Origin: Candidatus Limnocylindria bacterium
Lineage (GTDB): Bacteria; Eisenbacteria; RBG-16-71-46
DNA length: 64,000 bases
Direction: 5' to 3'
Assembly: GCA_035632955.1 (NCBI GenBank)
Contig: DASQFU010000048.1
Span: forward strand, 3,164-67,163
Positions 8,152-51,786 of the stretch are shown in pieces. Under the pieces are notes generated by a model that had not been told where the DNA came from, searched no databases, and saw only the letters and a program-made list of their open reading frames with translations. Made by a program: the position numbers and the translations under genes. How positions within the stretch are numbered: position 1 is the first letter of the stretch; each line of letters opens with the position of its first letter.

Positions 8152-8497
8152 TGGATCGCCGAAACCGCTCAGCGTTTCGTTACGGTGATGGATGTCTGGA
8201 GCGACCGGCTGGTTCGGATTCGTTCAGCCCGCTCAGCCGGGCTCGGCCAGCGCGGGCCGCACCATTGCGAACCACAGCGCTTCGAGGGCCAGCAGCAGCG
8301 CCACGCGAGCCCAAATGCCTCGCCGCGATGAGAGCCATGGCGGCGGTCCGATCGACAAATTTCCCCGTACGTATGGGTCCGTTCTCATGCCAAGCAACAA
8401 TGGACGCGGGTCGTCGGCTGCGCAACTTTGGGTTGGACCGGTAGTCCCCGACATCGATACTGTCCCGGATTCCGCGTCCGACCACCGGAGAACCCGA

Positions 8498-10237
8498 ATG
8501 CGTATCGCCGCCATCGACATCGGCACCAACTCGATCCACATGGTGATCGCCCAGGCGACCACGATGGGCGCGTTCGACGTCGTGGATCGCGAGCGCGAGG
8601 TGGTGCAGATCGGCCGCGGATCGTTCACCGGCGGCCGGTTGCGCGCCGAAGCGATCCGCCGCACGGTGGAGGCGCTCGCGCGTTACGTCCAGCTCGCCCG
8701 GCGCCATCAGGTGGACAAGATCCTGTGCACGGCCACGGCGGCGGTGCGCGAGGCGAGGAACGGCGGCGAGTTCCTGACGGCCGCCTACGAGGCCTCCGGG
8801 ATCGCGCCGCGCGTCATTCCGGTCGAGGAGGAGGGGCGTCTCATCTATCTCGCCGTCAAGGCGGCGCTCGGTCTCGAGGAGGCGCCGTCGCTGATCGTCG
8901 ACATCGGCGGTGGCAGCATGCAGCTCGTGGTCGGCACCCGCGAAAAACTCCTGCTCGCCTCGGGAGCACCGCTCGGGGCGCTGCGGCTGACCGAAACACT
9001 GCTCGAGAACGACCCTCCCGGGCGCCGCGAGCTGCAGGTCCTGCAGCGCACGATCCAGAAGCAGTCGCGAGAGCTGCTCCAGCGCGTGAAGGAACACGAG
9101 CCCGTGCGCGTGTATGGATCGTCGGGGTCGATTCACGCGCTCGCGCACATCGCGCACTGGGCGAAGAACGCCCAACCGATCGCGAACATCAACGGTCACC
9201 TGCTGTCGGTGGATGCGCTCAAGGACGTGACCCGGAAATTGAGCCGCATGACGGTGGCGGAGCGCGAGCGGCTGCCGGGGATCGATGCGCAGCGCGCGGG
9301 GATCATCCTTCCCGGAGCGCTGGTGCTCTCGCATGTGCTCGAGGAGATGGAAGCCGAAGGGATCACGATCTCCGACTTCGGAGTGCGCGAGGGGCTGGTC
9401 ACCGACTACATCAACGTCCACGCCGAGGAGATCTCGGAGTTCGAGGACGTGGAAGACCTGCGGGTGCGGAGCGTGCTGGCCCTGCTGAAGAAGTTCGACG
9501 GCGACGGCCAGCATCCGCGCCACGTGGCGAAGCTGGCGCTCGCGCTCTTCGATCAGCTGCGGACCGTTCACGAGCTACCGCCGGCCGCGCGCGACGTGCT
9601 GCATTTCGCGGCGCTGCTCCATGACGTCGGCGCGGTGATCGGCTACGACGGCCACGCCGAGCACTCGTACTACGTCATCAAGCACGGCAATCTGCGCGGG
9701 CTGAGCCCGGAGGATCTGGAGCTGGTCGCGAACGTGGCGCGCTATCACAGCAAGGCGCGGCCGCGAAAGCGTCACGCGGATTTTCGGGGTCTCGACAAGA
9801 CGCAACAGCGCACGGCGCGGTGGTTGGCCGCGTTGCTGCGGATCGCCGAAGGGTTGGACCGCAGCCACTACCAGTTGATTCGTGGTTTGCGCGTCGTACG
9901 CCGCGATCATCGCGTCTCGATCCTGGTCACCGCGCGCCGAGGCCGCGAGGCGCAACTCGAAATCTGGGCTTCGCGCCGCCGCACGGATCTGCTGAGCCGG
10001 GTGCTCGGTGGCAAGGGCGGCAAGACGCGCGTGCGCGTCGCGCTCGACACCGCGGCCGGACAGTCCGCCACCGGGAGAGCCGCGACGGCGCTGCCGCCGT
10101 CCGCCGGCGCCAAGCCCGGGCCGGCGACAAGGACGGCCGCGGTCGCAGGTAAGTCGGAACCCGGGAACGCGAAGCCGGCGGCGAAGGAGTCGGCCGCAAA
10201 ACCGGCGGCCCGGCTCAAGGTCGTTCCGAAGCGCTGA
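8498..10237 (+). CDS. ppx: exopolyphosphatase / guanosine pentaphosphate phosphohydrolase (Ppx/GppA family) with Lys/Ala-rich C-terminal tail
   Basis: ATG at 8498 with GGAG RBS. N-terminal 'IAAIDIGTNSIHMVIA' actin-like ATPase motif of Ppx/GppA. HD-like C-domain. The last ~75 aa are low-complexity AK/P-rich. Confidence 0.9.
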   Translation: MRIAAIDIGTNSIHMVIAQATTMGAFDVVDREREVVQIGRGSFTGGRLRAEAIRRTVEALARYVQLARRHQVDKILCTATAAVREARNGGEFLTAAYEASGIAPRVIPVEEEGRLIYLAVKAALGLEEAPSLIVDIGGGSMQLVVGTREKLLLASGAPLGALRLTETLLENDPPGRRELQVLQRTIQKQSRELLQRVKEHEPVRVYGSSGSIHALAHIAHWAKNAQPIANINGHLLSVDALKDVTRKLSRMTVAERERLPGIDAQRAGIILPGALVLSHVLEEMEAEGITISDFGVREGLVTDYINVHAEEISEFEDVEDLRVRSVLALLKKFDGDGQHPRHVAKLALALFDQLRTVHELPPAARDVLHFAALLHDVGAVIGYDGHAEHSYYVIKHGNLRGLSPEDLELVANVARYHSKARPRKRHADFRGLDKTQQRTARWLAALLRIAEGLDRSHYQLIRGLRVVRRDHRVSILVTARRGREAQLEIWASRRRTDLLSRVLGGKGGKTRVRVALDTAAGQSATGRAATALPPSAGAKPGPATRTAAVAGKSEPGNAKPAAKESAAKPAARLKVVPKR

Positions 10238-10251
10238 CCTGGTTCTGGGCG

Positions 10252-11229
10252 CTACCCGGTCTCCGGTGCGCTCTCGGGCGCCGGCGCCGGATCGTCGCGG
10301 ACTTCGGGTTCCGCCACGGCCGGCCGCCAGGACGAGAACATCTCGTTGCCTGCGGCTTCGCGCACCTGAACGACGGCTCGAGAATGATCGCGGTCGATGC
10401 GTTCGATCACGGGCGTGAGCGCGGCGCCGTGGCGCTCGAGTCCCACGTTCCGCAGTTTCACGGCCCGGCGCTCCAGCAGCTCCCGGAGCATCGCGAGGTC
10501 ATGAACGGCGCCGAGCGCCCGCTGGAGCTCTCGCAGCGGTTTTAGGGGCGCGATCGCGCCGAACACCGGCTGCGCAGATTCGATCACGTAGCGCCACTTC
10601 TTGACCGCGACGCGGGCCGCGTGAAGTCGGACGTCGTCGCTGCCTTCGATTGCGGGGCGGATCGCCTGAAGCGCCGCGTCGCGCGCTGTGGCGATGCGCC
10701 GGCGCGCCAGCTCGCGCGGCTCCGGGAACGCCTGCAGCCGCCCCTGCGCGATTCGGGCGGCGCGCATCACGCGGCGTTCCAGTCCGCTCAGGACTTTCGG
10801 GCGCGCGTTCCGCACCGCGCGCTGGCGCCCGCGCCGCAACCGGCGACGCAGGCGGATCCACAGTGACTCCACGACCATGCGGGACGAGGTCGCGAGCCCG
10901 TGCGCGAGCGTGACGAGTTGGGCCTGGTTGACCTCGAGCTCCCGGATCGGGCCGAGGGCGCGGCGCAGCGTGCGGAGAGAACGGCGCGCGCGGCGCGTGG
11001 CGCGCGGGCGCAGCAGGTCACGCCAGATCTGCAGCGCGGCGTCGAGGCGGCGCAGCGCGACACGGAGATCGTGGACCGCCTCGTCGTCGTCGTCGGTACG
11101 CACGCGCGCGGCCGCGGCGCTCACGGCATGCAGCCGCGTCGCGAGGTCGTGCTCGATCCGGGCGACCTGCTCGACCAAGCGGGTGGGGCCGGCATCCGCG
11201 CCCGGGCCTGGCGAAGGCATCGCAGCCAC
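10252..11229 (-). CDS. CHAD domain-containing protein
   Basis: All-helical, Arg-rich protein with recurring 'VHDLRVALRRL / AVHDLAML' conserved-His motifs characteristic of CHAD. Last gene of the minus-strand operon. Confidence 0.8.
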   Translation of the reverse strand: MAAMPSPGPGADAGPTRLVEQVARIEHDLATRLHAVSAAAARVRTDDDDEAVHDLRVALRRLDAALQIWRDLLRPRATRRARRSLRTLRRALGPIRELEVNQAQLVTLAHGLATSSRMVVESLWIRLRRRLRRGRQRAVRNARPKVLSGLERRVMRAARIAQGRLQAFPEPRELARRRIATARDAALQAIRPAIEGSDDVRLHAARVAVKKWRYVIESAQPVFGAIAPLKPLRELQRALGAVHDLAMLRELLERRAVKLRNVGLERHGAALTPVIERIDRDHSRAVVQVREAAGNEMFSSWRPAVAEPEVRDDPAPAPESAPETG

Positions 11230-11231
11230 CG

Positions 11232-11948
11232 TTAGATCTCCGTCAGTCGGCCTTCGGATGATCGGTCGCTGGTCTCGAGCAGCGAGGAGACGCGGGTCGC
11301 GAGAAAGTTGGCGACGTCATCCACCGGCTGGGTCGCGTCCAACGTCTCGAAAGTGTACTCGCGGGCCAGGTGATCCAGTTCGGTGATCACGCGACCCTGA
11401 TACTCGATGAACGACTCGTAGAGGTCCGCGCCCATCGGCAGATCCATTCCCGACTCCCAATAGTCGAACCCGCCGTTATGGAGCACGCGTGGCACCAGGT
11501 CCGCGACCTCGATGCGCAGGTAATAGACGGCGTCGGGCTTGAGCGCGACCGAGTACACCTGCTTGATCCAGTCGGGCTCCGCGCCGCGCACGATCGCCCG
11601 CGCGATCAAGGAATAGATGTAGCGGTCGGTGAGCATCACGAATCCGGCGCGGAGCGCGGGGATGATCTGTCGCTCGAGCCGGTCGGCGAAATCCGTCGCG
11701 TAGAACAGATTGAACGCGTTCGACCCGAGCGTGTTCCCTTGTTTGGCGCGGCGGATGCCGCGGCTCGCGAGATCGGAGCGCGACAGTCCGGTCTCGGCGA
11801 CCGCGTAACCCAAACGCTCGAGATGCGAGCGCAGCCGGGTGACGTGAGTCGTCCGGCCGACGCCGTCGGTGCCCTCGATCACGATCAGCCAGCCCGACAG
11901 CTCCTCGGGATTGACGCCCGGCACTCCGTAGGCTTCAAACCTGGGCAT
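11232..11948 (-). CDS. thymidylate-kinase-like P-loop protein with degenerate Walker A (GVGRTT, Lys->Arg)
   Basis: 'LIVIEGTDGVGRTT' aligns to the Tmk P-loop EGxDGxGK[ST]T, with Arg replacing the catalytic Lys. 'DRYIYS' aligns to the Tmk DRY motif. Overlaps neighbours by 14 nt and 1 nt. Confidence 0.7.
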   Translation of the reverse strand: MPRFEAYGVPGVNPEELSGWLIVIEGTDGVGRTTHVTRLRSHLERLGYAVAETGLSRSDLASRGIRRAKQGNTLGSNAFNLFYATDFADRLERQIIPALRAGFVMLTDRYIYSLIARAIVRGAEPDWIKQVYSVALKPDAVYYLRIEVADLVPRVLHNGGFDYWESGMDLPMGADLYESFIEYQGRVITELDHLAREYTFETLDATQPVDDVANFLATRVSSLLETSDRSSEGRLTEI

Positions 11949-12642
11949 AGTCGTCCTTGTTCTTGTGAATCCCGGCCAGATGCGCCTTGATGGCGCGCCG
12001 CAGCGCGCGCTGCTGGGTCTCGACCGCCTTCGTGGCGTCCATCACGGTGAGCCCGTATTCCTGAACCAGCGTTTCGTACTCGGCGAGGATGCGGGACTGG
12101 AACAGCTTGTAGGACTCCTGCGGATCGGCATGCAGATCCAGGTCCATCCCCGCCTCGTAGAACTTGAGCTTCGGCCGCCCGGAGAGGATGCGCTTGAGCG
12201 CCACGTCGAGCGGCACCCGAAAGTAGAACGCCTGGGTCGGCACGACGGCGAACCGGTACAACGACCGCACCCAGCGCGGCGGAACGCCGCGCACCACGTC
12301 GCGCGCGAACGCCGTGTACACGTAGCGATCCGCGAGCACGATCGCTCCCGCCTTGAGCGCCGGCATGATCTCGCGCTCGACCCGGTCGGAGAAGTCGGTG
12401 GCGTGGATCAGCGAGAAGGTGAGCGGTGTCAGCAGCTTTTTTCGCTTGCCCCGCGACGTCGTGGCTTTGACGATCGGCGACGAGTTCCACTCGCTGAACA
12501 GCACCGGATACCCTTCGCTGCGCAGCCACTGGGCGAGCAGCGTGAGCTGCGTGCTCTTGCCCGAGCCATCGATCCCCTCGACCACGAACAGCCGCCCGGG
12601 ATGGGACTGAGGCAGGCTGCCATAGGTTCCGGGCTCGCTCAT
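11935..12642 (-). CDS. thymidylate-kinase-like P-loop kinase (canonical Walker A)
   Basis: ORF trimmed to the ATG at 12642 (ATGA overlap with the sixA stop). 'FVVEGIDGSGKSTQ' is a canonical Tmk P-loop. 'ADRYVYTAFARD' is the DRY motif. Confidence 0.75.
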   Translation of the reverse strand: MSEPGTYGSLPQSHPGRLFVVEGIDGSGKSTQLTLLAQWLRSEGYPVLFSEWNSSPIVKATTSRGKRKKLLTPLTFSLIHATDFSDRVEREIMPALKAGAIVLADRYVYTAFARDVVRGVPPRWVRSLYRFAVVPTQAFYFRVPLDVALKRILSGRPKLKFYEAGMDLDLHADPQESYKLFQSRILAEYETLVQEYGLTVMDATKAVETQQRALRRAIKAHLAGIHKNKDDYAQV

Positions 12643-13157
12643 ACCCTGCTTTGCTTGCGGGCGATCCCGCGCAGCACACGCGGCGGCAGGAAGGCGCGCA
12701 GCTCGCCGCCGCCGGCCTTGATCGGACCGTCGAAGGCCACGAGGCACGCGCCGGCCTTCTTGAGCGGCACCGACGACGCGCCGGCGCCGAACAGCAACCC
12801 ACCCGCCAGCTTGCCGAGATCCGGCTCGTGACCGACGAGGAACACGGCATCGTCGGGCTCGAACTGCGACAGGCGCTGGAGTGTCGCGCGCACCGAGCCG
12901 CCCGGCACCAGCGCGTCCAGCGTTTCGATCGTGGTTTCCAGCTCGAGCGCTTCACGCAGAAGTTTCGCCGTCTGCATGCAGCGCACGAGCGGGCTCGAGA
13001 GGACCGATGTCGGATCCGCTTCGAGCCGCGCGAGCCCGCGTGCGGCGCGCTCGGTGCGCTCGGCGCCACGCGGCGAGAGCGGGCGCAGGGAATCATCCGG
13101 CCACCGTGACGAATCACGGCTGCCGGCGGGTCCGTGCCGGAACAGATAGATGCGCAT
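12639..13157 (-). CDS. sixA: phosphohistidine phosphatase SixA (histidine phosphatase superfamily)
   Basis: ATG at 13157 with AGGA RBS. 'MRIYLFRHGPA' contains the RHG catalytic motif. ~172 aa. Confidence 0.8.
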   Translation of the reverse strand: MRIYLFRHGPAGSRDSSRWPDDSLRPLSPRGAERTERAARGLARLEADPTSVLSSPLVRCMQTAKLLREALELETTIETLDALVPGGSVRATLQRLSQFEPDDAVFLVGHEPDLGKLAGGLLFGAGASSVPLKKAGACLVAFDGPIKAGGGELRAFLPPRVLRGIARKQSRV

Positions 13158-13423
13158 GGTCGTAATCCTTGGCGCCTGTGATGCCTGCGTACGTCGCGGG
13201 GTTTCGGTGCTTGGCGTACCGAATCGCCCGCGTCCTCGCGCCTTGCGGCGGGAACAGCGAACGCAGCCTAGCATCGCCCATCGAGGGCCAGCAACGGAGC
13301 CGGGCCGCGCTCCGTAATGATCTGCACCGCATGGCCCTACACGGCCGCTGGGTTGCCGTCGTGGTCGGCGGTCGGCCTCGGTTAGACTGCGACGCGCTTT
13401 CCAATCGATCGTTAGGAGGATCC

Positions 13424-14110
13424 ATGACGCCAATCGCCCGCCGCAGGATTCCCATCGCCGCCGCGCCGGTTTTCCGCTGCGTGAAGCTCGTGCTCGCGGT
13501 CTCGCTCGCCGCCGTGCTCGGCGCCGGCAGCTCCGCGAGCCAGACGTCGCAGCCGACGCGCGCGTCCAGCGAGTCAGGGCCCCGCTCGGAGCGCAGACCT
13601 CAGCCGCGACCGCACGGCTCCAAAGTGACCGTGGCGCCGGAGCAGGTGGAGGTGGACGACGGCGACACGGCCGTCATCCGCTGGAGCGCGAGCGACGCCG
13701 AGACGGTGCGCTTCCTCGGCATCGACACTCCGGAGACGCGGCACGTCCCGCACGATCTCCCCTACGCGCAGCCGTTCGGACCCGAGGCGCGTGCGTTTGG
13801 GCAAGGCGCCTTCGCCGCCGCCACCCGCATCGAGCTCTTGCGCAGCTCGAGTCTCGATCCGTACCGCCGCACACTCGCGTACTTCTTTCTGAACGGGAAG
13901 AACTACAGCGTGCTCGTGGTCGAGGCGCGACTCGCCGAGGAGAGCATCTCGCGTTACGGCGACAACGGACTGAAGCAGGAAGCGGCGGACGTGCTGGCGG
14001 CTGCGAAGCGGACCGGGCCGTTGCCGTTCGAGTCACCGTCCGACTACCGCAAGCGCATGCGCGACGTCTCGCGCTGGATGAAGGACCGGGGGATGAGTCC
14101 CGAGCAGTGA
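13424..14110 (+). CDS. thermonuclease (SNase-like) family protein, secreted
   Basis: ATG with AGGAGGA RBS. Signal peptide. 'DGDT...RFLGIDTPE' are SNase catalytic motifs. Confidence 0.75.
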   Translation: MTPIARRRIPIAAAPVFRCVKLVLAVSLAAVLGAGSSASQTSQPTRASSESGPRSERRPQPRPHGSKVTVAPEQVEVDDGDTAVIRWSASDAETVRFLGIDTPETRHVPHDLPYAQPFGPEARAFGQGAFAAATRIELLRSSSLDPYRRTLAYFFLNGKNYSVLVVEARLAEESISRYGDNGLKQEAADVLAAAKRTGPLPFESPSDYRKRMRDVSRWMKDRGMSPEQ

Positions 14111-14150: not shown

Positions 14151-15971
14151 CTAGGGCGCCAGCACGTCCTCGGGCGGACGGCGGAGCGCGCGGGCGATCG
14201 GAATCAGGCTGTACTCGGGATCGGCCCAGCGCGAGCGGTCGTAGAAGAACGCGAGCCGCAGATCGGGACTCTTCGCGAGCGCGGGATCGGATCGCAGCCG
14301 CGCCTCGAACTCTCGCGCCAGGGCGGGGTCGTCGCGCAGCATCTGCCGCGCGATCGGCTCCATCACGTAGGGCTCGGCGTATTCCTTCTTCTGCAGCACG
14401 GTGTCGAAGGCGTTCCAATGGAACAAACCGTCCGGCGCCTGGGACTCGAACAAGTGCACCGCGACCAGCGCCGAGCGCTGATCGAGCGGCACCCAAAGGT
14501 CGCCGGGGCGGAACGTCCGCTGCCGCCGCACCAACTCGACCTGGATCACGCTGTCGGGAACATGCCCCTCGAACAGCGGCCGCGTCTTCCACGACACGAT
14601 CCGCTCCTGCTCGACGGTGTCGCTCCAGGCGCGCGTAAAACGTCGCGTGCGCACGCTGTGGATCGCGAGCCGCTCGGTCGCCGCCGTCCACTCCTGCGGC
14701 ACAAAGTATCCCACCGGCTGGCGCACCGTGATCTCGGGCTCGAGCTCCCGGAACAGCGGAATCAGAGTGTCCCACGGTGCAGTGCCGTAGCGCGGAACCG
14801 TCGTGCCGAGCACAGCGCTGAACTCGTAGCGCGTCGCCACGCCCCGGTACGGGAACGGCTCGCTGCGGCTCGTCAGGCGCGACGTCAGATCCACGGTCCG
14901 GAGCGCCTGGTCTGCGTTCCGGCCGCGCGCGACGACGTCGCTCTCGGCCTCGGACACCGCCGATCTCAATGCCGCCGGCCGGGCGTTGATCTCTTCCAGT
15001 AGCGCGACCAGGAGGTCGTAGGTGGCGCGCACGCGGCTCGCGTACGGCTTCAGCACGTGCGTCTCGACCAGCACGCTCGCCCGGCATTGCAGCGACGTGT
15101 AGCCGCTCGAAAACCGCGGGGACGTGCCCTCGAACTTGATCCCGGAGCGCGGATCGTTGGTGGTCACGAAGTCGAGATAGGGCGCCGGCAGATGCCCGAT
15201 CGCCGCCAACCGCGACACGACGCGTCCTTCGAACGCATCGACCAGCCAGCGCGTCACGGGATCGGGCGAGGTCGGCCCGTGGTTGAAGCTGTAGGTCACG
15301 TCGTGGCGATAGTCGGCGCCGTTGGTGGTGTGGTTGTCGACCAGCAGATGTGGCCACCAGCGCGTGTAGACGCGCGACAGCATGGCGCGCATCTCCGGAG
15401 CCTCGGCCTTGACGTAGTCGCGATTGAGATTGAGCCCGATCGGCGTCGCCCGCCACCCCATCTCTTCGGGCCCGTTCTGGTTGATGCGGTTGTAGCGGCT
15501 GCGGCGCTCGTGCGCGTCGACCGAGAAGATCGGCAGCACCAGCAGCACGACCTCGTCGAGCAGCGCTTCGCGCGTGCGCGTCACCACCATGTCGCGCATC
15601 AGCGCGAGCGACGCATCCTTGCCCTCGATCTCGCCGGAATGAATCCCGTTCTGGATCAGGACGATCGGCTTGCCGAGCGCCAGCGCCTGCTCGGGCGTGA
15701 ACGCGCGGTCCTTGGACAGGATGACGAGCGGCAGATCGCGTCCCTGGCCACTCCGGCCGTAGCTCTCGACCTTGACCCATGTCGAGGCGGCCTCGAGCGC
15801 GCGGCAGAAACGCATGGTTTCGTCGTAGTCCGCGGTCTGCCGGTAGGCCGAACGCTCCGCGCGCGTCTTCCAGTAGGCGGGAACCGCGAGCGTGTCGGGT
15901 GCGGGTTGGGCGGCGGCGGGCGCCGCGAGGAGAGTCAGCGCCGCGAGTCGGCGGAGCGTGCGCGAGAGCAT
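14151..15971 (-). CDS. M14 family zinc carboxypeptidase, secreted
   Basis: Signal peptide. 'GIHSGE' HxxE zinc-binding motif. Size and domain order consistent with peptidase M14. Confidence 0.8.
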   Translation of the reverse strand: MLSRTLRRLAALTLLAAPAAAQPAPDTLAVPAYWKTRAERSAYRQTADYDETMRFCRALEAASTWVKVESYGRSGQGRDLPLVILSKDRAFTPEQALALGKPIVLIQNGIHSGEIEGKDASLALMRDMVVTRTREALLDEVVLLVLPIFSVDAHERRSRYNRINQNGPEEMGWRATPIGLNLNRDYVKAEAPEMRAMLSRVYTRWWPHLLVDNHTTNGADYRHDVTYSFNHGPTSPDPVTRWLVDAFEGRVVSRLAAIGHLPAPYLDFVTTNDPRSGIKFEGTSPRFSSGYTSLQCRASVLVETHVLKPYASRVRATYDLLVALLEEINARPAALRSAVSEAESDVVARGRNADQALRTVDLTSRLTSRSEPFPYRGVATRYEFSAVLGTTVPRYGTAPWDTLIPLFRELEPEITVRQPVGYFVPQEWTAATERLAIHSVRTRRFTRAWSDTVEQERIVSWKTRPLFEGHVPDSVIQVELVRRQRTFRPGDLWVPLDQRSALVAVHLFESQAPDGLFHWNAFDTVLQKKEYAEPYVMEPIARQMLRDDPALAREFEARLRSDPALAKSPDLRLAFFYDRSRWADPEYSLIPIARALRRPPEDVLAP

Positions 15972-40424: not shown

Positions 40425-41900
40425 CTACGCCGCCGAACGGTTCTCCGGAGGAGTTGGGTACTGCTCGGCGCTCAACACCCGCCGGATGCTGCGCTCGGGC
40501 GGCACCGGACGCAGCTCCAGGATCTTGTGCGGAGCGAGATGCTCGCCGGCCGCAGTCACCACGATTCGCGCATGCGGCCGCCCCAGGTCCGCGGCGTTCG
40601 GGGCCACGACCAGTGCGATCGAGCCGTCGTCCAGCTCCACCATCTGGCCCGGCGGATAGAACCCGACGGTCTGCACCAGCGCCCATAGCATCGCCGGGTC
40701 GAACTGTTTCTTCAGCGACCCCAGCATCATGCCGAGCGCCTGATACGGCGTCACCGTTGCGCCGCGCGCGCTGCGATGGGTCTGGAGGCTCACGTAACAG
40801 TCGGCGACCGCGACCAGGCGCGACAACACGCTGGCCGTCCACCGGCCTTGCAGCGCGGGATAGCCGCTGCCGTCCGCCGCCATGTGGTGCTCGAGCGCGA
40901 CCCGCATGCAGCGCAGCGTCGTCTGATTCAGCGTCGTCGAGCCGGCGATCAGCCGGGCGCCCTCGGCGGGATGGCGTTCCGCTGCGACCTGCTCTTCGGG
41001 CGTGAACTGCCCGAGCGGATGGCGGATCTGGTCGGCCACGACGTCCTTGCCGACGTCGTGCAGCAGCGCCGCGACGCCGAGATCGGCCAGCGCGCGCCGG
41101 TCCATCTCCAGGTAGTGACCCATGCTGACCGCGACCATGCAAACGTTCACGGCATGGGCGTAGGTGTATTCGTCGTGGTGGGTGAGGCTCGAAAGCCCGA
41201 CCACCACCGGCTCGGAAGCGAACGCCCCATCCACGAGCGGCTGGACGACGCGCTTGGCGTGACGCAGCTCGGTTCCGGCTTGTAGGCTCGTGGTCGTGAG
41301 CAGCGAGCGTGCTCCTTGAAGCGCCGCCGAGTAACTCTTGCGCGCGGCGCCGCGCGGCGCGTTCCCGACCACGCCGGGGGTGCCCCCGCCTTCTTCACCG
41401 CCGTGACCACCGGCCGTCGCTGCGCCGCCGGTGGACGGATCCGTCGCGCCGGCCCCGGCGGACTCACTGGCGCCGGCTCCCCAGGCGGGCCAATCGTATT
41501 CGGAGGAATCGTCCGGCGCTTCGGCCGAGGCGTGGATCGCCGGCAGCAGGTGATCGGCGCCCTGGGCCAGGCACGCGGTCAGGAGCTCGGTGCCTTGATA
41601 CGTGTCCGACTGCAGGAACAGGCGGAAGAAGATCGAGATCTCTTCGTCGCGCAGGCCCTTCAGCGCCCGGAAGCCGGCGATGCGCCGCCGCTTGAACTCC
41701 TCGAGCACCGACTTGTGGAAGCGCAGGTTGTTCGACTTGAACGGGACGCGCACACCGTTCAGGAACAAATCGTCTTCGAGCGCGACCAGGACCGCCTCGC
41801 CGTGCTCCTCCAGCAGCGGGGTCAGGACCTCGCGGAAGTAGTCGAGCTGGCGCGTGAAGACCTGGTTGCTCATGTCGTACGAGCGACCGATGCGCACCAT
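40425..41900 (-). CDS. HD-GYP domain c-di-GMP phosphodiesterase with ~240-aa uncharacterised N-terminal domain
   Basis: The 1046-aa ORF was trimmed to the ATG at 41900, because upstream the HEAT gene occupies 42002.. in another frame. 'HHDEYTYAHAV...LLHDVGK' HD motif. 'HHMAADGSGYP' GYP motif. Confidence 0.8.
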   Translation of the reverse strand: MVRIGRSYDMSNQVFTRQLDYFREVLTPLLEEHGEAVLVALEDDLFLNGVRVPFKSNNLRFHKSVLEEFKRRRIAGFRALKGLRDEEISIFFRLFLQSDTYQGTELLTACLAQGADHLLPAIHASAEAPDDSSEYDWPAWGAGASESAGAGATDPSTGGAATAGGHGGEEGGGTPGVVGNAPRGAARKSYSAALQGARSLLTTTSLQAGTELRHAKRVVQPLVDGAFASEPVVVGLSSLTHHDEYTYAHAVNVCMVAVSMGHYLEMDRRALADLGVAALLHDVGKDVVADQIRHPLGQFTPEEQVAAERHPAEGARLIAGSTTLNQTTLRCMRVALEHHMAADGSGYPALQGRWTASVLSRLVAVADCYVSLQTHRSARGATVTPYQALGMMLGSLKKQFDPAMLWALVQTVGFYPPGQMVELDDGSIALVVAPNAADLGRPHARIVVTAAGEHLAPHKILELRPVPPERSIRRVLSAEQYPTPPENRSAA

Positions 41901-42001
41901 CGACGAGAACCGGAGCAACACCTGGGCGCCAGTCTCGCGCAGCCGTTGATCCGCCGCGGCGGCGGGCGTGCCGTCGCGCGCGGCCGACTTCGCCGGCACC
42001 G

Positions 42002-43771
42002 TCACGGCTGGCTCCGGATGGCCATGCCTTCGAGGCAGGCGCTGCGCACCGCTTCGCTGCGCGAGCGCACCCCCGCCTGGAGGGCGGCGGTCGCCTTCGG
42101 CGTGCCGATCCTCTGCAACGTGCGGGCGGCGGCGACGCGCTGCAGGGTGCGGCGCGCGAACCAGCCGCCGCGATGGAGCAGGGCTTCCAGCGCGGGCACC
42201 GCCTCGTCTCCCGCCACTTCGCCGAGCGCGCCGAACAACGCTCGCTGGTTCTCTTCGTTGCGCGACTCGAAGTCGGGCGCTTCGACCTGGTGAAGAATCG
42301 CGCTCGCGACTTCGGGGTCCTTCTGGCGGGCGAGCATGTTGAGGCTCGCGGCGAGGAGCTGTGGATCGCGCGTGTCGAGCTGGCCGATCAGGATCGGCCG
42401 GCGCGCATCGGCCGGCACCGAACCCAAGGATTGCACGACTTGTCGGCGCACGCGCGGCTCGGGATGGAACGCGGCCGCGCGCAGCAGGCTGACGACCCCA
42501 GGGCCGCCGATCTGCCCGAGCACGAACACCGTGTTGCGCACGACGTACCAGCGCGAGTCGGCGAGGTAGGGCGCCAGCAGCTCGGGGTGATCGTTGCATA
42601 GGTAGCAGAGCATGGTGCAGGCCGCCGCGCGGGTCCGGCTCTTCTGTGCATAGGCCATGACCGCGCACGCGAGGTCCAGCGCCGGCTGGCCAACGCCGAC
42701 CGCGAGCGCCGAGAACTGCGCCTGATCCGGGGCTTCCGACTCGTCGAGCTGCTCGGTGATCTGCTCGCTGTCGAGCGCGGAGATCGCCGCCGCCAGCGTG
42801 CCGTCCGTCACTGAGCCGTCGGGATCGAACTCGCGCAGCAGCGCGAACGCGCGTTGCGCCTCGTCCCAAGCGCAGCTCTGAATCGCGCCCGCGAGCCAGT
42901 TCGCGGCCGCGTGAGCAAAGACGTTCCGGCTCTCCGGGGTCGGGTTCAGGCCGTGCAGCAAGCGCAGCAGCTCGGGCGCCTGATCGCTCCAGGGAGTCGC
43001 CCGCTCGCTTGCCCATTCCGTGAGGAACCGAGTGCGCGCGAACTGCATCGTCGGCAGGATCGCCTGGTAGGCCGCGGGCACTTCGACCGACGCTTCCGGA
43101 AGGTGCCAGTCGTCGAAGCTGTCGCGATGCAGGCCCTGAGCGACGTTCGAAACCTGGCCGAGGTCGGCGCGGATCTCGGCGCCGCTCGGCGACCACGCGT
43201 AAGCCAGTCCTTGCCGGCCACCGCCACCGCTGCCGGTCGGCCGGCGCGACGACAGGTAGATGGTCTGCTCGGCCGGCACGGCTTCGATCTGGAGGTACAC
43301 CGTGTTGGCCTGCCAGAGCAGCGTCACCAGATCGTCCTGCGTCTGAGGACCGACGCCGGTCAGCAGCAGCGCTTCGAACAGCGCCTCGAACTCGTGGCGG
43401 GGCAATCCCGGCTGAAAGGCGAGGCCGCGCACGCCGTCGCGGTAGAGCTGGAACGGCAGTGGATTCCTTCGGCTGGTCTCGGCCTCTGCGCTCGCGTCTT
43501 CCGCCGGGCGGACGACCGGCTCGTCGCCGAGGAAGATCTCGTTCGACGTCACCCGGAACGCCCACAGGCCGTGGATGCTCAGATCTTCACTCAGCATCTG
43601 GAAGAGATGATCTCGAGCGGCCTGAGCGATCGCGTTCTCGGCGCGATAGAGACGGCAGGTCTTCAGCGTGCGCGCGAGCTGGCGGAACCAGCGCGTCGCG
43701 GCTTGCGCCGATGCGGATAGCTGCAGGAAACTCAGATTCCGAGTTGGATTGGTCTCGGGTGTGGTCGTCAT
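42002..43771 (-). CDS. HEAT/PBS-lyase-like repeat protein
   Basis: Repeated 'VRxxxxxxLGxIG' HEAT-like units in the C-terminal half. Confidence 0.6.
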   Translation of the reverse strand: MTTTPETNPTRNLSFLQLSASAQAATRWFRQLARTLKTCRLYRAENAIAQAARDHLFQMLSEDLSIHGLWAFRVTSNEIFLGDEPVVRPAEDASAEAETSRRNPLPFQLYRDGVRGLAFQPGLPRHEFEALFEALLLTGVGPQTQDDLVTLLWQANTVYLQIEAVPAEQTIYLSSRRPTGSGGGGRQGLAYAWSPSGAEIRADLGQVSNVAQGLHRDSFDDWHLPEASVEVPAAYQAILPTMQFARTRFLTEWASERATPWSDQAPELLRLLHGLNPTPESRNVFAHAAANWLAGAIQSCAWDEAQRAFALLREFDPDGSVTDGTLAAAISALDSEQITEQLDESEAPDQAQFSALAVGVGQPALDLACAVMAYAQKSRTRAAACTMLCYLCNDHPELLAPYLADSRWYVVRNTVFVLGQIGGPGVVSLLRAAAFHPEPRVRRQVVQSLGSVPADARRPILIGQLDTRDPQLLAASLNMLARQKDPEVASAILHQVEAPDFESRNEENQRALFGALGEVAGDEAVPALEALLHRGGWFARRTLQRVAAARTLQRIGTPKATAALQAGVRSRSEAVRSACLEGMAIRSQP

Positions 43772-44699: not shown

Positions 44700-44909
44700 G
44701 TGCGAGCGCTTGCCGGGTTCGCGATTCGCCTCTATCAACGCTTTGCGCCGCCGTTGCTCCGTGGCGCATGCCGCTACACGCCGAGCTGTTCCTCGTATTC
44801 GCGGGAGGCGATCGAGCGTCACGGACTCTGGCGCGGGCTCGGGTTCGCGCTCCAACGTCTGGCGCGCTGCCATCCGCTCGGCTCGAGCGGCTACGATCCG
44901 GTGCCGTGA
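44700..44909 (+). CDS. yidD: membrane protein insertion efficiency factor YidD
   Basis: GTG at 44700. 'LYQRFAPPLLRGACRYTPSCSSYSREAI' YidD motif. Confidence 0.85.
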   Translation: MRALAGFAIRLYQRFAPPLLRGACRYTPSCSSYSREAIERHGLWRGLGFALQRLARCHPLGSSGYDPVP

Positions 44910-44911
44910 GG

Positions 44912-46720
44912 ATGGAACGCCGCACCCTGATCGTCGTTTTGGCGTGCCTCGCCTTGATGTTCGCCTATCCGTTCCTGCTCAAGTCGTTCGGACTCGATCG
45001 CTATCTCCGTCGCACGCCGCCGCCGCCGGCTGCGGTGGACACCGCGCGCGTCACCGGCGCGACGGACGCCCCGGTCTCCGACACCGCGGCTCCGATCGCG
45101 CCGCCAGTTCCGAGCGCCCAGCTCGGCGCGGTCCCGGTCCGGGCGGCGCAGGCGGAGCTGGAGCGGACGCTCCACATCGACACGCCGCTCTATCGCGCCG
45201 AGTTCTCGAACCGCGGCGCACGCCTGGTGGCCGTCGAGCTGAAACGCTACGCGGCCGCGCACGGCACCGAGCGTCCCGCGCGCCCGGACCGCAATGCCGA
45301 GGTTCCGGCGGCCGACCGCGTCGTGCTGGCCGGCGGCCCGTCGCTCGCCCTCGATCTCGGAGCGGGTGGCGCGCGCCGTTCGCTCGCCGATGCCGCGTAT
45401 GCGGTGCAGGAGAGTCTGGACGCAGCGGGCATGACACGGTCGCTTACGTTCACGCTGCGCGACGCCGAGGGGCTGTTCGTGCGCCAGACCTTCCGCGTCC
45501 GACCGGACGGCTACGCCCTCGACCTCGACGTCGAGATTCGCGGCGTTCCGGCCGGTTGGCGGGTGGCCGACTATTCGCTGACGGCGCGCTCGTGGCCGCT
45601 CGTCAACGAGTCGAACGCGATGGACGACGCCCGCTCACTGCGCGCCACCAGTCTGGTCGGCACCAATCTCCACCGCGAAGGCATGGGTGGAATCAAGCGC
45701 GCGCCGCGAGTCTTCGACGGCGCCGCGACCCTGGCCGCGGTGCAGACCCGCTACTTCGTGGGCGCGGTCGCGGTCGCCCAGGCGACCGGCCGGAGCGTGA
45801 TCTCGCAGTCCGAGGTACGGCGCCTGGACCCGGGGCTGCTCGGGCGCATGCCGCAGGGCAGCCCGGTCACGCAGGAAGTCGCGGTCAACACGCTGGTGGT
45901 GGGATTGCCCGGAGAAACCAATCCGCTCAACCGCTTCGTCGTCTACTTCGGACCCGGCGAGTACATCCGGCTCGCGCGGCTCGGGCACGGCCTCGATCGG
46001 CTCGTCGATCTCGGATGGGCGTGGATCACGCCGTTCAGCAAGGCGCTGCTCCAGCTCCTGGTCTGGCTCCATGGCCTGCTCAAGAACTATGGCGTCGCGA
46101 TCGTTCTGCTCGCGACCCTGGTCCGCGTCGCGCTCCACCCGCTCAACATGATGAGCATGAAGAGCATGCGCTCGATGCAGCGACTGCAGCCGGAGATGGA
46201 GCGGATCAAGGTGAAATACAAGAACGATCCGCAGGCGATGAACACGGCGGTGATGGCGCTCTACAAAGAGAACAAGGTGAACCCCGCGGGCGGGTGCCTG
46301 CCGATCCTGCTTCAGATGCCGTTGTTCATCGCCCTCTACTCGGTGCTGTTCAACGCGATCGAGCTCAGGCAGGCGCCGTTCGCGGCCTGGATCCAGGATC
46401 TGTCCGCGCCCGATCACCTGTTCTCGATCGGTCCGTTTCCGATCCGCGTTCTGCCCCTGGTGATGACCGGCAGCGGGCTCCTGTCGCAGAAGCTGACGCC
46501 GACCGACCCGCGTCAGGCGCCGACCATGTACCTGATGAACGTGATGATGCTGGTGTTCTTCTACAACCTGCCGTCCGGGCTGGTGCTGTACTGGACGGTG
46601 ATGAACCTGCTGACCGCGCTCCAGCAGTGGATGGTGCTGCGGGATGACGGGCCGGCCGCACCGGCCCCCGCCCTGGCGGCCAGCGCCAGACCGGTGGCCA
46701 AGAAAGCCTCCGGGAAGTAA
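44912..46720 (+). CDS. yidC: membrane protein insertase YidC
   Basis: ATG at 44912 with GAGG RBS. N-terminal TM, periplasmic domain and C-terminal 5-TM core 'LPILLQMPLFIALY'. Confidence 0.9.
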   Translation: MERRTLIVVLACLALMFAYPFLLKSFGLDRYLRRTPPPPAAVDTARVTGATDAPVSDTAAPIAPPVPSAQLGAVPVRAAQAELERTLHIDTPLYRAEFSNRGARLVAVELKRYAAAHGTERPARPDRNAEVPAADRVVLAGGPSLALDLGAGGARRSLADAAYAVQESLDAAGMTRSLTFTLRDAEGLFVRQTFRVRPDGYALDLDVEIRGVPAGWRVADYSLTARSWPLVNESNAMDDARSLRATSLVGTNLHREGMGGIKRAPRVFDGAATLAAVQTRYFVGAVAVAQATGRSVISQSEVRRLDPGLLGRMPQGSPVTQEVAVNTLVVGLPGETNPLNRFVVYFGPGEYIRLARLGHGLDRLVDLGWAWITPFSKALLQLLVWLHGLLKNYGVAIVLLATLVRVALHPLNMMSMKSMRSMQRLQPEMERIKVKYKNDPQAMNTAVMALYKENKVNPAGGCLPILLQMPLFIALYSVLFNAIELRQAPFAAWIQDLSAPDHLFSIGPFPIRVLPLVMTGSGLLSQKLTPTDPRQAPTMYLMNVMMLVFFYNLPSGLVLYWTVMNLLTALQQWMVLRDDGPAAPAPALAASARPVAKKASGK

Positions 46721-48451: not shown

Positions 48452-49858
48452 GTGAATCTCGATGACACCATCGCCGCGATCGCGACTGCGCCGGGTGCGG
48501 CGGGGCTCGCGGTCGTCAGGGTGAGCGGGTCTTCGGCGTTGCCGATCGCCGCGGCTGTGTTTCGGGGTGCGGCGCCACTGACCGCCGCCGGCAGCCACAC
48601 GTTGCACCACGGCTGGGCGCACCGGCCTGCGCGGGGCACGCCGGGTGAGCCATCGTCACCGCCAATTGACGAGGTCGTGGCCGCCGTGTTCAAGGCTCCG
48701 CGCTCGTACACGCGCGAGGACGTGGTGGAGATCTCCTGCCATGGTGGCGCGTTTGCCGCGCGTCACGTGCTCGCCGCGCTGCTCGCGTCCGGCGCCCGGC
48801 TCGCGCGTCCCGGTGAGTTCACGCTCCGGGCGTTCATCCATGGCCGGCTCGACCTCGCCCAGGCCGAGGCGGTCGCCGACCTGATCCGGGCCGAGACGGA
48901 ACGCGCGCACGCGCTGGCGCTGGCGCAGCTCGCGGGGGCGCTCTCGCGCCGGCTGGATGCGATCGGCGAGCGGATCGCCGACGCCGTCGCCGAGGTCGAG
49001 GCACGCGTCGACTTCGCAGAGGACGTCGGCGGCATCGAGGTGCCGCCGCACGTGGTCGCGGCGATCGCCGCGGTCGACGCCGAGCTGGCCGAGCTGCTCG
49101 CGGGCTCTGCTTACGCGCGCGCGGTGCGCGAAGGCGTGCGCGTGCCACTGGTCGGCCGGCCGAACGTCGGCAAGTCGTCGCTGTTCAACGCGCTGCTCGG
49201 CGAGGAGCGCGCGATCGTCACGCCGATCGCCGGCACGACGCGAGACCGCGTCAGCGAGGCGATCGAGATCGCCGGCATCCGCGTCACGCTCTCGGACACC
49301 GCGGGCCTCCGAGAGGACGCAGAGAACGTCGAAGCGATCGGCATCGCAGTCGCGCGCCAGGCAATCGCGCAGAGCCCGGTCGTGTTGTGGGTCGTGGACG
49401 GCTCGGAGCCGCTCGGCGACGAGGATCGCGCCATCGCCGCGCGGCTGCCGGGCAAGCGCGTGTTGGTCGCGCTCAACAAGATCGATCGGGGCCGGACGGT
49501 GCATCGCGAGGACGTCGAACGATTGCTCAACGGCGCGCCGCGCCGGACGGTCATGGTCTCGGCGGCTCGCGGCGAGGGACTCGCCGACCTTCACCGCGCG
49601 CTGGCCGAGCTGCTGGACGTCGGACCGGAGCGCGGCGCGACCGGCGGTGCGCTCGGCAATCTGCGTCATGCCGAAGCGTTGGAGCGAGCGCGGGAGGCAC
49701 TGGCGCGAGCGCGCAGTGCGGCCGGGGAGCGCATGCCCGGGGAGATCGTCGCGATCGAGCTGCGCGAAGCGCTGCACGCGATCGGCGAAGTGACCGGTAA
49801 GAGCGCCGGCGAGGACCTGCTGGAGCGCATCTTCAGCCGCTTCTGCGTGGGGAAATGA
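48452..49858 (+). CDS. mnmE: tRNA modification GTPase MnmE
   Basis: GTG at 48452 with GGGAG RBS. '[11 protein letters not shown]' N-domain. G1 '[10 protein letters not shown]'. C-terminal 'CVGK'. Confidence 0.9.
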
Positions 49859-51786
49859 CGAGCGAACCGAGGACGAACGGCAGCGGGTCCGCAACCGCCG
49901 AGCTCGACTTCGACGTGGTCGTGGTCGGGGCGGGCCACGCAGGCTGCGAGGCCGCGGTGGCGTGCGCGAAGCTCGGCCTCCACACGGCGTTGGTCACGGT
50001 GAAGCTCGAGGACACCGCGAAGATGTCGTGCAACCCCGCGATCGGCGGGATCGGCAAGGGCCACATGGTGCGCGAGATCGACGCGCTCGGCGGCATCATG
50101 GGCATCGTCACCGACCGGGCGGGAATTCAGTTCAAAATGCTGAACCGCGGGCGTGGGCCGGCGGTCTGGTCGCCGCGCGCGCAATGTGACAAGGCCCGGT
50201 ACTCCGAGGAGATGACCCGGCTCCTCGACTCTGTCACGGGGCTCGTGCGGGTCGCGGGGGTCGTGAATCACGTGCGCCTGGAGCGTGGCCGCGTCGCCGC
50301 GCTCGAGCTGGCGGACGGGCGTGCCCTGCGCTGCCGCGCCGCCGTCATCACGCCCGGCACGTTCCTGAACGGCTTGATTCACGTCGGCGAGCGGCAGATC
50401 GAAGGCGGCAGGATCGGCGAGCACGCGGCGCGCGCGCTGAGCGAGTGCCTGGCCGAGCTCGGGCTCGAACGCGGCCGGCTGAAGACCGGCACGCCGCCAC
50501 GGCTGCATCGCGACACCATCGACTGGGATGGGCTCGTGCCGCAGCCGGGCGACGAGCCGCCGGTGCCGTTTTCGCACTGGACCGAGCGCCTGCAGTTGGA
50601 TCAAGTGCTCTGCCATCTGACCGCGACCAACGAGCGCACGCACGACGTCATCCGGCGCAACCTGCACCGCTCGCCGCTCTACTCGGGCCAGATTCGCGGC
50701 ACTGGGCCTCGTTACTGCCCGTCGCTCGAGGACAAGGTGGTGAAGTTTCCGGAGCGGCCCTCCCACCACATCTTCCTCGAGCCGGAAGGCCGCGCCGTGG
50801 TGGAGACGTACGTGAACGGTGTGTCGTCGAGCATGCCCGAAGACGTGCAGCTCGAGTTCATTCGCACCATCCCGGGCCTCGAGCGCGCGGAGATGCTGCG
50901 GCCCGGCTACGCGGTCGAATACGACTTCGTGCTGCCTCATCAGCTCAAGCCCACGCTCGAGGTGAAGCACGCCCCGGGGCTGTTCCTTGCGGGCCAGATC
51001 TGCGGCACGTCGGGCTACGAGGAAGCCGCCGCCCAGGGCCTCGTGGCCGGCATCAACGCCGCGCAAGCGGTGCGCGGCGGCGAGGGATTCGTCTTGCGCC
51101 GCGATCAGGCGTACGTCGGTGTGCTGGTCGACGACCTCGTCTCGCGCGAGCACCACGAGCCCTACCGGATGTTCACGTCGGCCGCCGAGCACCGGCTCCT
51201 GTTGCGCGCGGACAACGCGGACGAGCGGCTCGCTGAGATCGGCTTCCAGCTCGGACTGCTCGGACGCGAGCAGGTCGAGCTGGTGCGCGCGAAGCAGGCC
51301 GCGATCGAGGCCGAGGCGCAACGACTGGCCAAGGTCACCGTGAGCGTGGCGTCTTCGCATGCCGACGGCGCCGCAGGATCGCCGGCGCTCAAGCCGGTCG
51401 CCGCGCTGGAGCTGCTGGCGCGGCCGGACGGCTCGTACCGGCGGCTCGGAGAGCTCGGCATCGCGACCGAGCTTTCCGAAGCCTGGGGCGAATGCCTCGA
51501 AGTGCGGATTCGCTATCACGGCTACATCGTGCGCCAGCGGCGGACCGCCGAGCAGGCGCAGGCGCTCGAGCACGTGCCGCTTCCCGAAGCACTGTGGGAC
51601 CAGGAGCTGAACGGATTGTCGCGCGAGGCGCGCGAGAAGCTGGTGCGCTGGCGGCCGTCGACGGCGGCGCACGCATCCCGCATTGCCGGCATCTCGCCTG
51701 CGGATGTCGCGGTGCTGTTGGTGCACGCGCGCCGCCTGAGCGGGCGCGAGACCGCCGCGAGCCGTTCCGTTACCGGGGTCACCTGA
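49855..51786 (+). CDS. mnmG: tRNA uridine 5-carboxymethylaminomethyl modification enzyme MnmG
   Basis: ATGA-coupled to mnmE. FAD motif '[14 protein letters not shown]'. Confidence 0.95.

Follow-up and report, generated by a model that had tools for sequence, protein, structure and literature searches.

A tandem pair of Tmk-superfamily genes in an Eisenbacteria-like genome as probable catalytic and regulatory subunits of a family-3 polyphosphate kinase

Introduction

What is the role of a P-loop protein that has Arg in place of the canonical Walker A Lys and is encoded directly downstream from a paralog whose loop is intact? The question is raised by a gene at positions 11232..11948 (minus strand) of a 64,000-nucleotide stretch of DNA from Candidatus Limnocylindria bacterium (assembly GCA_035632955.1, contig DASQFU010000048.1), the whole of which we refer to as the window. 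This gene and its upstream neighbor had initially been annotated as Tmk-like paralogs, the downstream one being a likely pseudo-kinase partner in a pair of the kind that often acts as a heterodimer or includes a regulatory subunit. From their similarity to STK_15430, the content of the operon, and their position in a distance tree, we consider it probable that the two genes encode the catalytic and regulatory subunits (cPPK3 and rPPK3; hereafter c and r) of a family-3 polyphosphate kinase (PPK), in a coupled sixA-cPPK3-rPPK3-CHAD operon next to ppx.

Family 3, PPK3, was described between 2024 and 2026 (Journal of Biological Chemistry 2026, PMC12995831; bioRxiv 10.1101/2024.08.28.610084). The PPK of Sulfolobus acidocaldarius, a heteromer encoded in the operon sixA-ppx-saci_2019-saci_2020-CHAD, has Saci_2019 (cPPK3) as its catalytic subunit; Saci_2020 (rPPK3) has neither thymidylate (dTMP) kinase nor PPK activity alone, and it boosts the activity of cPPK3 ∼10-fold in an alpha2beta2 complex (PMC12995831). 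The authors identify STK_15430 as a cPPK3 homolog and predict that PPK3 operons in bacteria have the same neighbors and that each encodes both c and r (PMC12995831). They ascribe the inactivity of rPPK3 to a replaced Arg in the DRX motif, and they report that the nucleotide-binding residues are conserved in c and r, the basic polyphosphate (polyP) cleft in c only (PMC12995831).

Results

Two overlapping genes of the Tmk superfamily

The r gene begins with ATG and encodes a protein of 238 amino acids that belongs to the Tmk superfamily and that we predict to be the regulatory, noncatalytic PPK3 subunit. The translation of this open reading frame (ORF) contains LIVIEGTDGVGRTTHV and, later, VMLTDRYIYS. 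The Lys-to-Arg substitution that had been noted in its P-loop is borne out: The variant Walker A loop (residues 25–34; 11847..11876, minus strand) reads EGTDGVGRTT, so that the Lys position of the canonical GxxGxGK[ST] motif is occupied by Arg32, with codon CGG at 11853–11855. The retained DRY, also noted at the outset, is likewise found in the translation (the DRX, or Walker B–like, motif; residues 108–110; 11619..11627, minus strand).

The upstream paralog, a cPPK3-like gene for the predicted catalytic subunit of 235 amino acids, lies at 11935..12642 (minus strand) with a likely ATG start at 12642; its mechanical ORF, 11935..12747, reaches a GTG at 12747. Its translation has the motif DRY as well as the Walker A Lys, in the canonical loop EGIDGSGKST (12550..12579, minus strand) that the initial annotation had given it. 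The ATG of r precedes the TGA stop of c, and the two genes share 14 nucleotides (nt) at this junction (11935..11948, minus strand; ATGCCCAGGTTTGA), an overlap that suggests translational coupling. Both proteins match Pfam PF02223 (Thymidylate_kin), r with 66 bits and c with 72 bits, and r scores 420 bits with a hidden Markov model (HMM) of the r group vs. 191 bits with one of the c group. HMM scans of all ORFs in the window found no third Tmk-like ORF.

Similarity to characterized PPK3 subunits

In sequence searches of the PDB, the best match of the r protein is ST1543/STK_15430 (2plr/5h70; 126 bits, 1.9e-35), compared with 4e-11 for the best canonical Tmk. The c protein matches the same entry with 192 bits (7.3e-56), compared with 64 bits for a canonical Tmk. 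This protein of Sulfurisphaera tokodaii (PDB 2plr, 4nzy, 4rzx, 5h70) was deposited as a dTMP kinase and is now regarded as a cPPK3 homolog; it is c-type (GKS, DRY, EWNSS, KKK), and the window r differs from it at those c-specific positions. A model of the r protein built with AlphaFold2 (predicted local distance difference test score, 79) is likewise closest in fold to 2plr/5h70 (TM-score on the target, 0.89; 35% identity). Its low-confidence loops (residues 55–60, 70–74, and 165–167) correspond to the cleft loops and lid of c.

Over the core, the window c and Saci_2019 have 47% of their residues in common. As in the window, the S. acidocaldarius enzyme (SaPPK3) is encoded by two tandem Tmk-superfamily genes that overlap (by 22 nt in S. 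acidocaldarius), c then r then CHAD, together with sixA and ppx. SaPPK3 and the window also have in common a c subunit with intact GKS, DRY, and a basic K-K-K/EWNSS cleft, and an r subunit without the basic cleft. The two systems differ in the position of ppx (between sixA and c in S. acidocaldarius, convergent downstream in the window) and in the host, which is an archaeon for SaPPK3 and bacterial, Eisenbacteria-like (77% identity to the best genome matches), for the window.

We placed the pair in a neighbor-joining distance tree with 100 bootstraps and E. coli Tmk as the single outgroup. The Lys-type paralogs, including the window c, Saci_2019, and the Nitrososphaera c, form one clade in 94 of 100 bootstraps. 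Saci_2020 falls outside this clade, among the Arg-type paralogs (95/100).

The polyP operon and its occurrence in related genomes

The pair is part of a minus-strand unit of four closely coupled genes, sixA-Tmk(K)-Tmk(R)-CHAD. The first (12639..13157, minus strand, likely ATG start at 13157) encodes a sixA-like phosphohistidine phosphatase that scores 76.6 bits with TIGR00249, above the cutoff of 74.5, and matches Pfam His_Phos_1; its stop codon overlaps the ATG of c at 12642 as ATGA. The last (10252..11229, minus strand) begins 2 nt past the r stop codon and encodes a CHAD-domain protein (Pfam PF05235, 110.8 bits). Convergent with the operon is an exopolyphosphatase gene (Ppx/GppA plus domain III/HD) at 8498..10237 on the plus strand, within a mechanical ORF that starts at 8192. 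Its product matches Pfam Ppx-GppA (210.9 bits) and Ppx-GppA_III (91 bits), and its score with TIGR03706, 256.6 bits, is under the cutoff of 307. The ∼100 codons upstream of the likely start at 8498 are probably a noncoding extension, and the ORF (8192–10237) ends in a long, low-complexity C-terminal tail rich in Ala, Lys, and Pro beyond the HD/domain III region. A scan of 10000–13600 for promoters and terminators gave nothing above shuffled sequence, and Pfam found no PPK domain (ppk1, ppk2) in the 10 longest ORFs of the window.

Scanning a single genome for each species, we found at least 574 related genomes, and the ortholog counts given here come from the best 80 of them. These include Candidatus Eisenbacteria (up to 78% identity, and probably the lineage to which the window belongs), Acidobacteriota, Chloroflexota (including the cultured Tengunoibacter tsumagoiensis), Binatia, Desulfobacterota-like metagenome-assembled genomes (MAGs), Melainabacteria, Dormibacterota, and others. 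Both paralogs are co-located in 78 of the 80 and adjoin each other in c-then-r order in nearly all. The Eisenbacteria relatives show full synteny with the window locus, and among the 80 loci the polyP genes that adjoin the pair are CHAD in 43, sixA in 32, and ppx in 27. The Tengunoibacter pair (locus L019) is flanked by two-component system genes, with no polyP genes, and is uninformative on function.

Conservation of the Arg-type Walker A loop

The initial annotation had proposed to check whether the substitution is conserved in orthologs, with Lys in the orthologs counting against it. The residue is Arg in 80 of 80 r orthologs in the species genomes, all of which also have DRY, and no Lys occurs among 120 close r homologs (74%–93% identity), where we find Arg 118 times, His once, and one unmatched motif; DRY is present in all 120. 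Two r orthologs have a more degenerate loop, EGPD[TA]VGRST. In the neighboring c paralog, by comparison, the residue is Lys in 75 of 75 readable cases. Across the r ortholog genomes, the Walker A Arg is encoded by every one of its six codons, which argues for selection on the amino acid itself. The r subunit is also conserved almost to the degree of c: In 76 genome-matched pairs, pairwise identity averages 61% for r and 67% for c, and 73 and 82 columns, respectively, are at least 95% conserved. The r subunit is not decaying, and Arg32 is under purifying selection.

We also searched the representatives of 50%-identity clusters exhaustively. Most of the r-like proteins there have Arg where a P-loop can be read, many of the representatives being fragments; a few divergent ones have Cys. 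The latter are P0169, P0181, P0195, P0197, P0255, and P0262, with loops such as EGSDGAGCTT and LDGIHGCGCTS. All 8000 candidate 90%-identity clusters that were scored fall at E ≤ 1e-5, a threshold that admits canonical Tmks.

The archaeal r subunits allow the two motifs to be separated. We compared four Sulfolobales r loci (L081:5621–6253, L085:3126–3743, L086:3124–3756, and L087:3127–3762); three of the four have Arg at the Walker A position, and all four have DGY in place of DRY. Arg together with DGY is found in S. tokodaii (GSGRT), Metallosphaera sedula (GSGRT), and a Thermoprotei MAG (GSGRS). Saci_2020, with Lys and DGY, is the exception. The Nitrososphaera r combines Arg with DRY, as do all 80 bacterial orthologs. 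On these alignments, the Lys-to-Arg change is a family-wide mark of the r subunit, the loss of the DRX Arg looks like an addition in Sulfolobales, and Saci_2020 is atypical at its P-loop. In the main text of the two versions of the PPK3 paper, to which our comparison was confined, the DRX Arg alone is mentioned, and the Lys-to-Arg change is not stated as a mark of rPPK3.

Residues that distinguish r from c

Apart from the Walker A Lys, the catalytic motifs of the r subunit are intact. E25, G26, D28, G29, G31, R32, and T34 are invariant in the aligned r orthologs. The protein also keeps D86, R90, E92, D108-R109-Y110, R117, R121, the lid residue R154, E165, G167, and D169, as well as D204-A205, the motif that lines the adenine site in Tmk-fold kinases.

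The differences from c lie at fixed positions that are specific to each subunit. The window c has K29, D105-R106-Y107, EWNSS, and G-K-R-K-K; conservation of these columns is 92% or higher among 76 c orthologs, and Saci_2019 has them too. In r, EWNSS becomes T-G-x-x-R-S; K67 and K68 become E/Q and G; H80 becomes Y (residue 83); R156 is deleted; K160 becomes D; Y162 becomes W; and R215 is variable. The mean net charge is −4.5 for r vs. +3.9 for c (−9 and +8 in the window pair). This charge difference and the loss of the c-specific cleft in r match the published statement on the polyP cleft (PMC12995831). An r subunit can be diagnosed by GxG-R-[ST]T with DRY kept and by Y83, R57, D162, and W164, which replace the c-type H, S, K, and Y.

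Fusions and divergent copies

P0121 (460 amino acids) is a clean natural fusion in c-r order, in which the second P-loop is further degenerate (EGSDYSGH). Three longer proteins (P0154, P0165, and P0171; 650–696 amino acids) have the c domain first and also match the window Ppx protein; in P0154 the c domain is followed by a degenerate r-like domain (EGAHHAGV, NRY) and then by an HD-type C-terminal region. P0251, from a Bryobacteraceae MAG (MGA2136292.1), is c-like (327 bits with the c HMM) and keeps the Lys in a perturbed loop, EGIRGSGKRT, with DGY for DRY; from its sequence it may be an independently degenerated copy of c.

Other genes of the window

Directly upstream of the operon are genes for a secreted-looking staphylococcal-nuclease homolog (13169–14110, plus strand) and an M14 carboxypeptidase-like protein (14151–15971, minus strand). 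Farther away is a gene for a protein of 1046 amino acids with an HD_5 (HD-GYP-like) domain (40425–43565, minus strand). No link is established between the polyP genes and the nuclease, carboxypeptidase-like, or HD_5 neighbors. About 33–40 kb from the operon are yidC (60KD_IMP plus YidC_periplas; 44768–46720, plus strand) and mnmG/gidA (49855–51786, plus strand), a pairing typical of the replication-origin region; gidA likewise adjoins the pair at an unrelated PPK3 locus, L083.

Discussion

Several observations weigh against the assignment of the window pair to PPK3. The biochemistry of PPK3 comes solely from S. acidocaldarius, whose r subunit is Lys-type, and identity between the window r and Saci_2020 is only 28%. 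The two proteins are in fact reversed at the two motifs, Saci_2020 keeping the Walker A Lys (EGIMSSGKTT) with ADGY at the DRX site and the window r having Arg with DRY. Since the window r keeps the DRX Arg, the inactivity of Saci_2020 is not simply transferable to it, and where r subunits are recognized by the lack of that Arg (PMC12995831), the window r has D108-R109-Y110. All of its other catalytic motifs are intact as well, which would fit a residual or a different activity equally well. At 31 of the 80 loci, the pair has no polyP gene nearer than 6 kb. The genome of a PPK3 host is expected to contain a separate canonical tmk and usually neither PPK1 nor PPK2, and a window of 64 kb cannot show that PPK1 and PPK2 are absent genome-wide or that such a tmk is present or absent. 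Finally, monophyly of the r group is recovered in only 35 of 100 bootstraps; we therefore make no claim from the tree that r arose once, and a stronger argument is the Arg that Sulfolobales, Nitrososphaera, and bacteria share.

If the pair is a PPK3, its c subunit, basic and Lys-bearing, would carry out reversible phosphate transfer between polyP and ADP/ATP, by analogy with the S. acidocaldarius enzyme. The acidic, Arg-bearing r would not act as a kinase; it would oligomerize with c (as alpha2beta2 in Sulfolobus) and raise its activity, so that in this bacterium, too, a heteromer with PPK activity would form. Walker A Lys-to-Arg mutants of P-loop NTPases usually keep nucleotide binding and lose phosphoryl transfer. 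The same substitution in r would likewise abolish phosphoryl transfer and leave the binding of nucleotide or phosphate in place. Because the P-loop glycines, T34, DRY, the lid residue R154, and D204-A205 are intact, the r pocket probably still binds a ligand, most plausibly ADP or ATP, which would make r a regulatory rather than a merely structural partner.

Much of the initial suggestion of a pseudo-kinase partner holds up under this comparison. Partnership is favored by co-location in nearly all of the 80 genomes, the gene overlap, the c-r fusion P0121, and the precedent of SaPPK3; that the Arg-type r is noncatalytic is something we infer. The accompanying idea of a heterodimer or regulatory subunit has an experimental counterpart in the archaeal homolog, with an r that is inactive alone and activates c within a defined complex (PMC12995831), although the identity of the system had been missed. 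A comparable pairing of an active and a degenerate P-loop module is known from two-domain class II PPK2 (Pseudomonas aeruginosa PA3455), where an inactive N-terminal domain precedes an active C-terminal one and has been proposed to drive oligomerization and activation (PMC12995831, discussion). PPK2 belongs to another P-loop kinase family, outside the Tmk superfamily, and has its modules fused. There is no Walker B in its inactive module, and compared with PPK3 its nucleotide and polyP sites have traded places.

The alternative that survives best, although we think it unlikely, is an Arg-type r that works as a second active site, by another chemistry or on another substrate, making the bacterial PPK3 an enzyme of two working subunits. 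Such a site might carry out polyP-dependent phosphorylation of another nucleotide, or its P-loop might bind polyP or phosphate instead of ATP. The alternative draws on the invariance across phyla of DRY, R117, R121, R154, E165/G167/D169, and D204-A205, and on the near-equal conservation of r and c. Moreover, in Sulfolobales, for which an inactive r was shown, the DRX Arg is lost in addition, and Lys-to-Arg alone may therefore not have been fully inactivating. Against it, most P-loop enzymes in which the Walker A substitution has been tested no longer transfer phosphoryl groups, and a net acidic r without the basic cleft residues of c is a poor fit with polyP binding. The regulatory precedent, in addition, is experimental (PMC12995831).

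It is very unlikely that we are dealing with two ordinary thymidylate kinase genes of which the second has degenerated. This would agree with the PF02223 matches of both proteins, with their public names ("dTMP kinase" and "thymidylate kinase"), and with the description of ST1543 as an unusual thymidylate kinase in an earlier report. With the dTMP-kinase equivalog model, however (NCBIfam TIGR00041, EC 2.7.4.9, trusted cutoff 83.25 bits), r scores 70.8 bits and c 78.5 bits; these are below the cutoff, and in NCBIfam release 20 both subunits have only subthreshold matches, of which the dTMP-kinase model is the best. Similarity to E. coli Tmk amounts to only 18–19 bits. Canonical Tmks (TIGR00041; E. 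coli b1098, Thermus thermophilus 5x7j) have in common with the pair the fold, the layout of P-loop, DRX, and lid, and the D-A motif of the ATP site. They differ from it in overall sequence (∼25% identity) and in the dTMP base-binding residues, which the pair does not conserve, and the genomic context is that of a polyP operon and not the tmk-holB context of E. coli. In S. acidocaldarius, dTMP kinase activity was found in a third paralog, Saci_0893, and in neither Saci_2019 nor Saci_2020 (PMC12995831). We therefore reject the canonical Tmk reading on the strength of the subthreshold TIGR00041 scores, the weak E. coli Tmk match, and the polyP context. Of the first description as Tmk-like paralogs, membership of the superfamily stands, and identity as dTMP kinases does not.

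There is next to no chance that Arg32 reflects a sequencing or assembly error or that the gene is a decaying pseudogene: two bases would have to change to turn CGG into AAG or AAA, which excludes a single base-calling error, Arg is present in every one of the 80 genomes through all six of its codons, and the r ORF is intact and strongly conserved; we rejected this explanation.

Returning to the assignment as cPPK3 and rPPK3, we tentatively suggest a broader scheme, which is possible rather than probable. The Walker A Lys-to-Arg change, and not the loss of the DRX Arg, would be the ancestral and near-universal signature of rPPK3 in Bacteria and Archaea. With a functional adenine-nucleotide pocket, r might serve as an allosteric sensor of the ATP/ADP energy charge that sets the direction of c between polyP synthesis and ATP regeneration. 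Saci_2020 would then be derived, having regained the Lys and lost the DRX Arg, and PPK3 would be common in the soil phyla Acidobacteriota, Eisenbacteria, Ktedonobacteria, and Binatia.

The PPK3 family itself is already known from its recent description, and the window is a bacterial, Eisenbacteria-like member of it. What is new is limited to the Lys-to-Arg change as a conserved rPPK3 signature, the retention of DRY outside Sulfolobales, and the wide distribution of the family in soil bacterial phyla. The assignment corrects a widespread misannotation, thousands of such proteins being publicly named dTMP kinase or thymidylate kinase. With at least 574 species genomes matched, PPK3 is also far commoner in soil bacteria than the "a few bacteria" of earlier accounts. 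It raises a mechanistic question, since the inactivity of rPPK3 has been ascribed to a loss in the DRX motif that is absent from most family members. The practical gain is modest: polyP metabolism may be inferred better from soil metagenomes, and the family offers new PPK candidates for ATP-regeneration biocatalysis.

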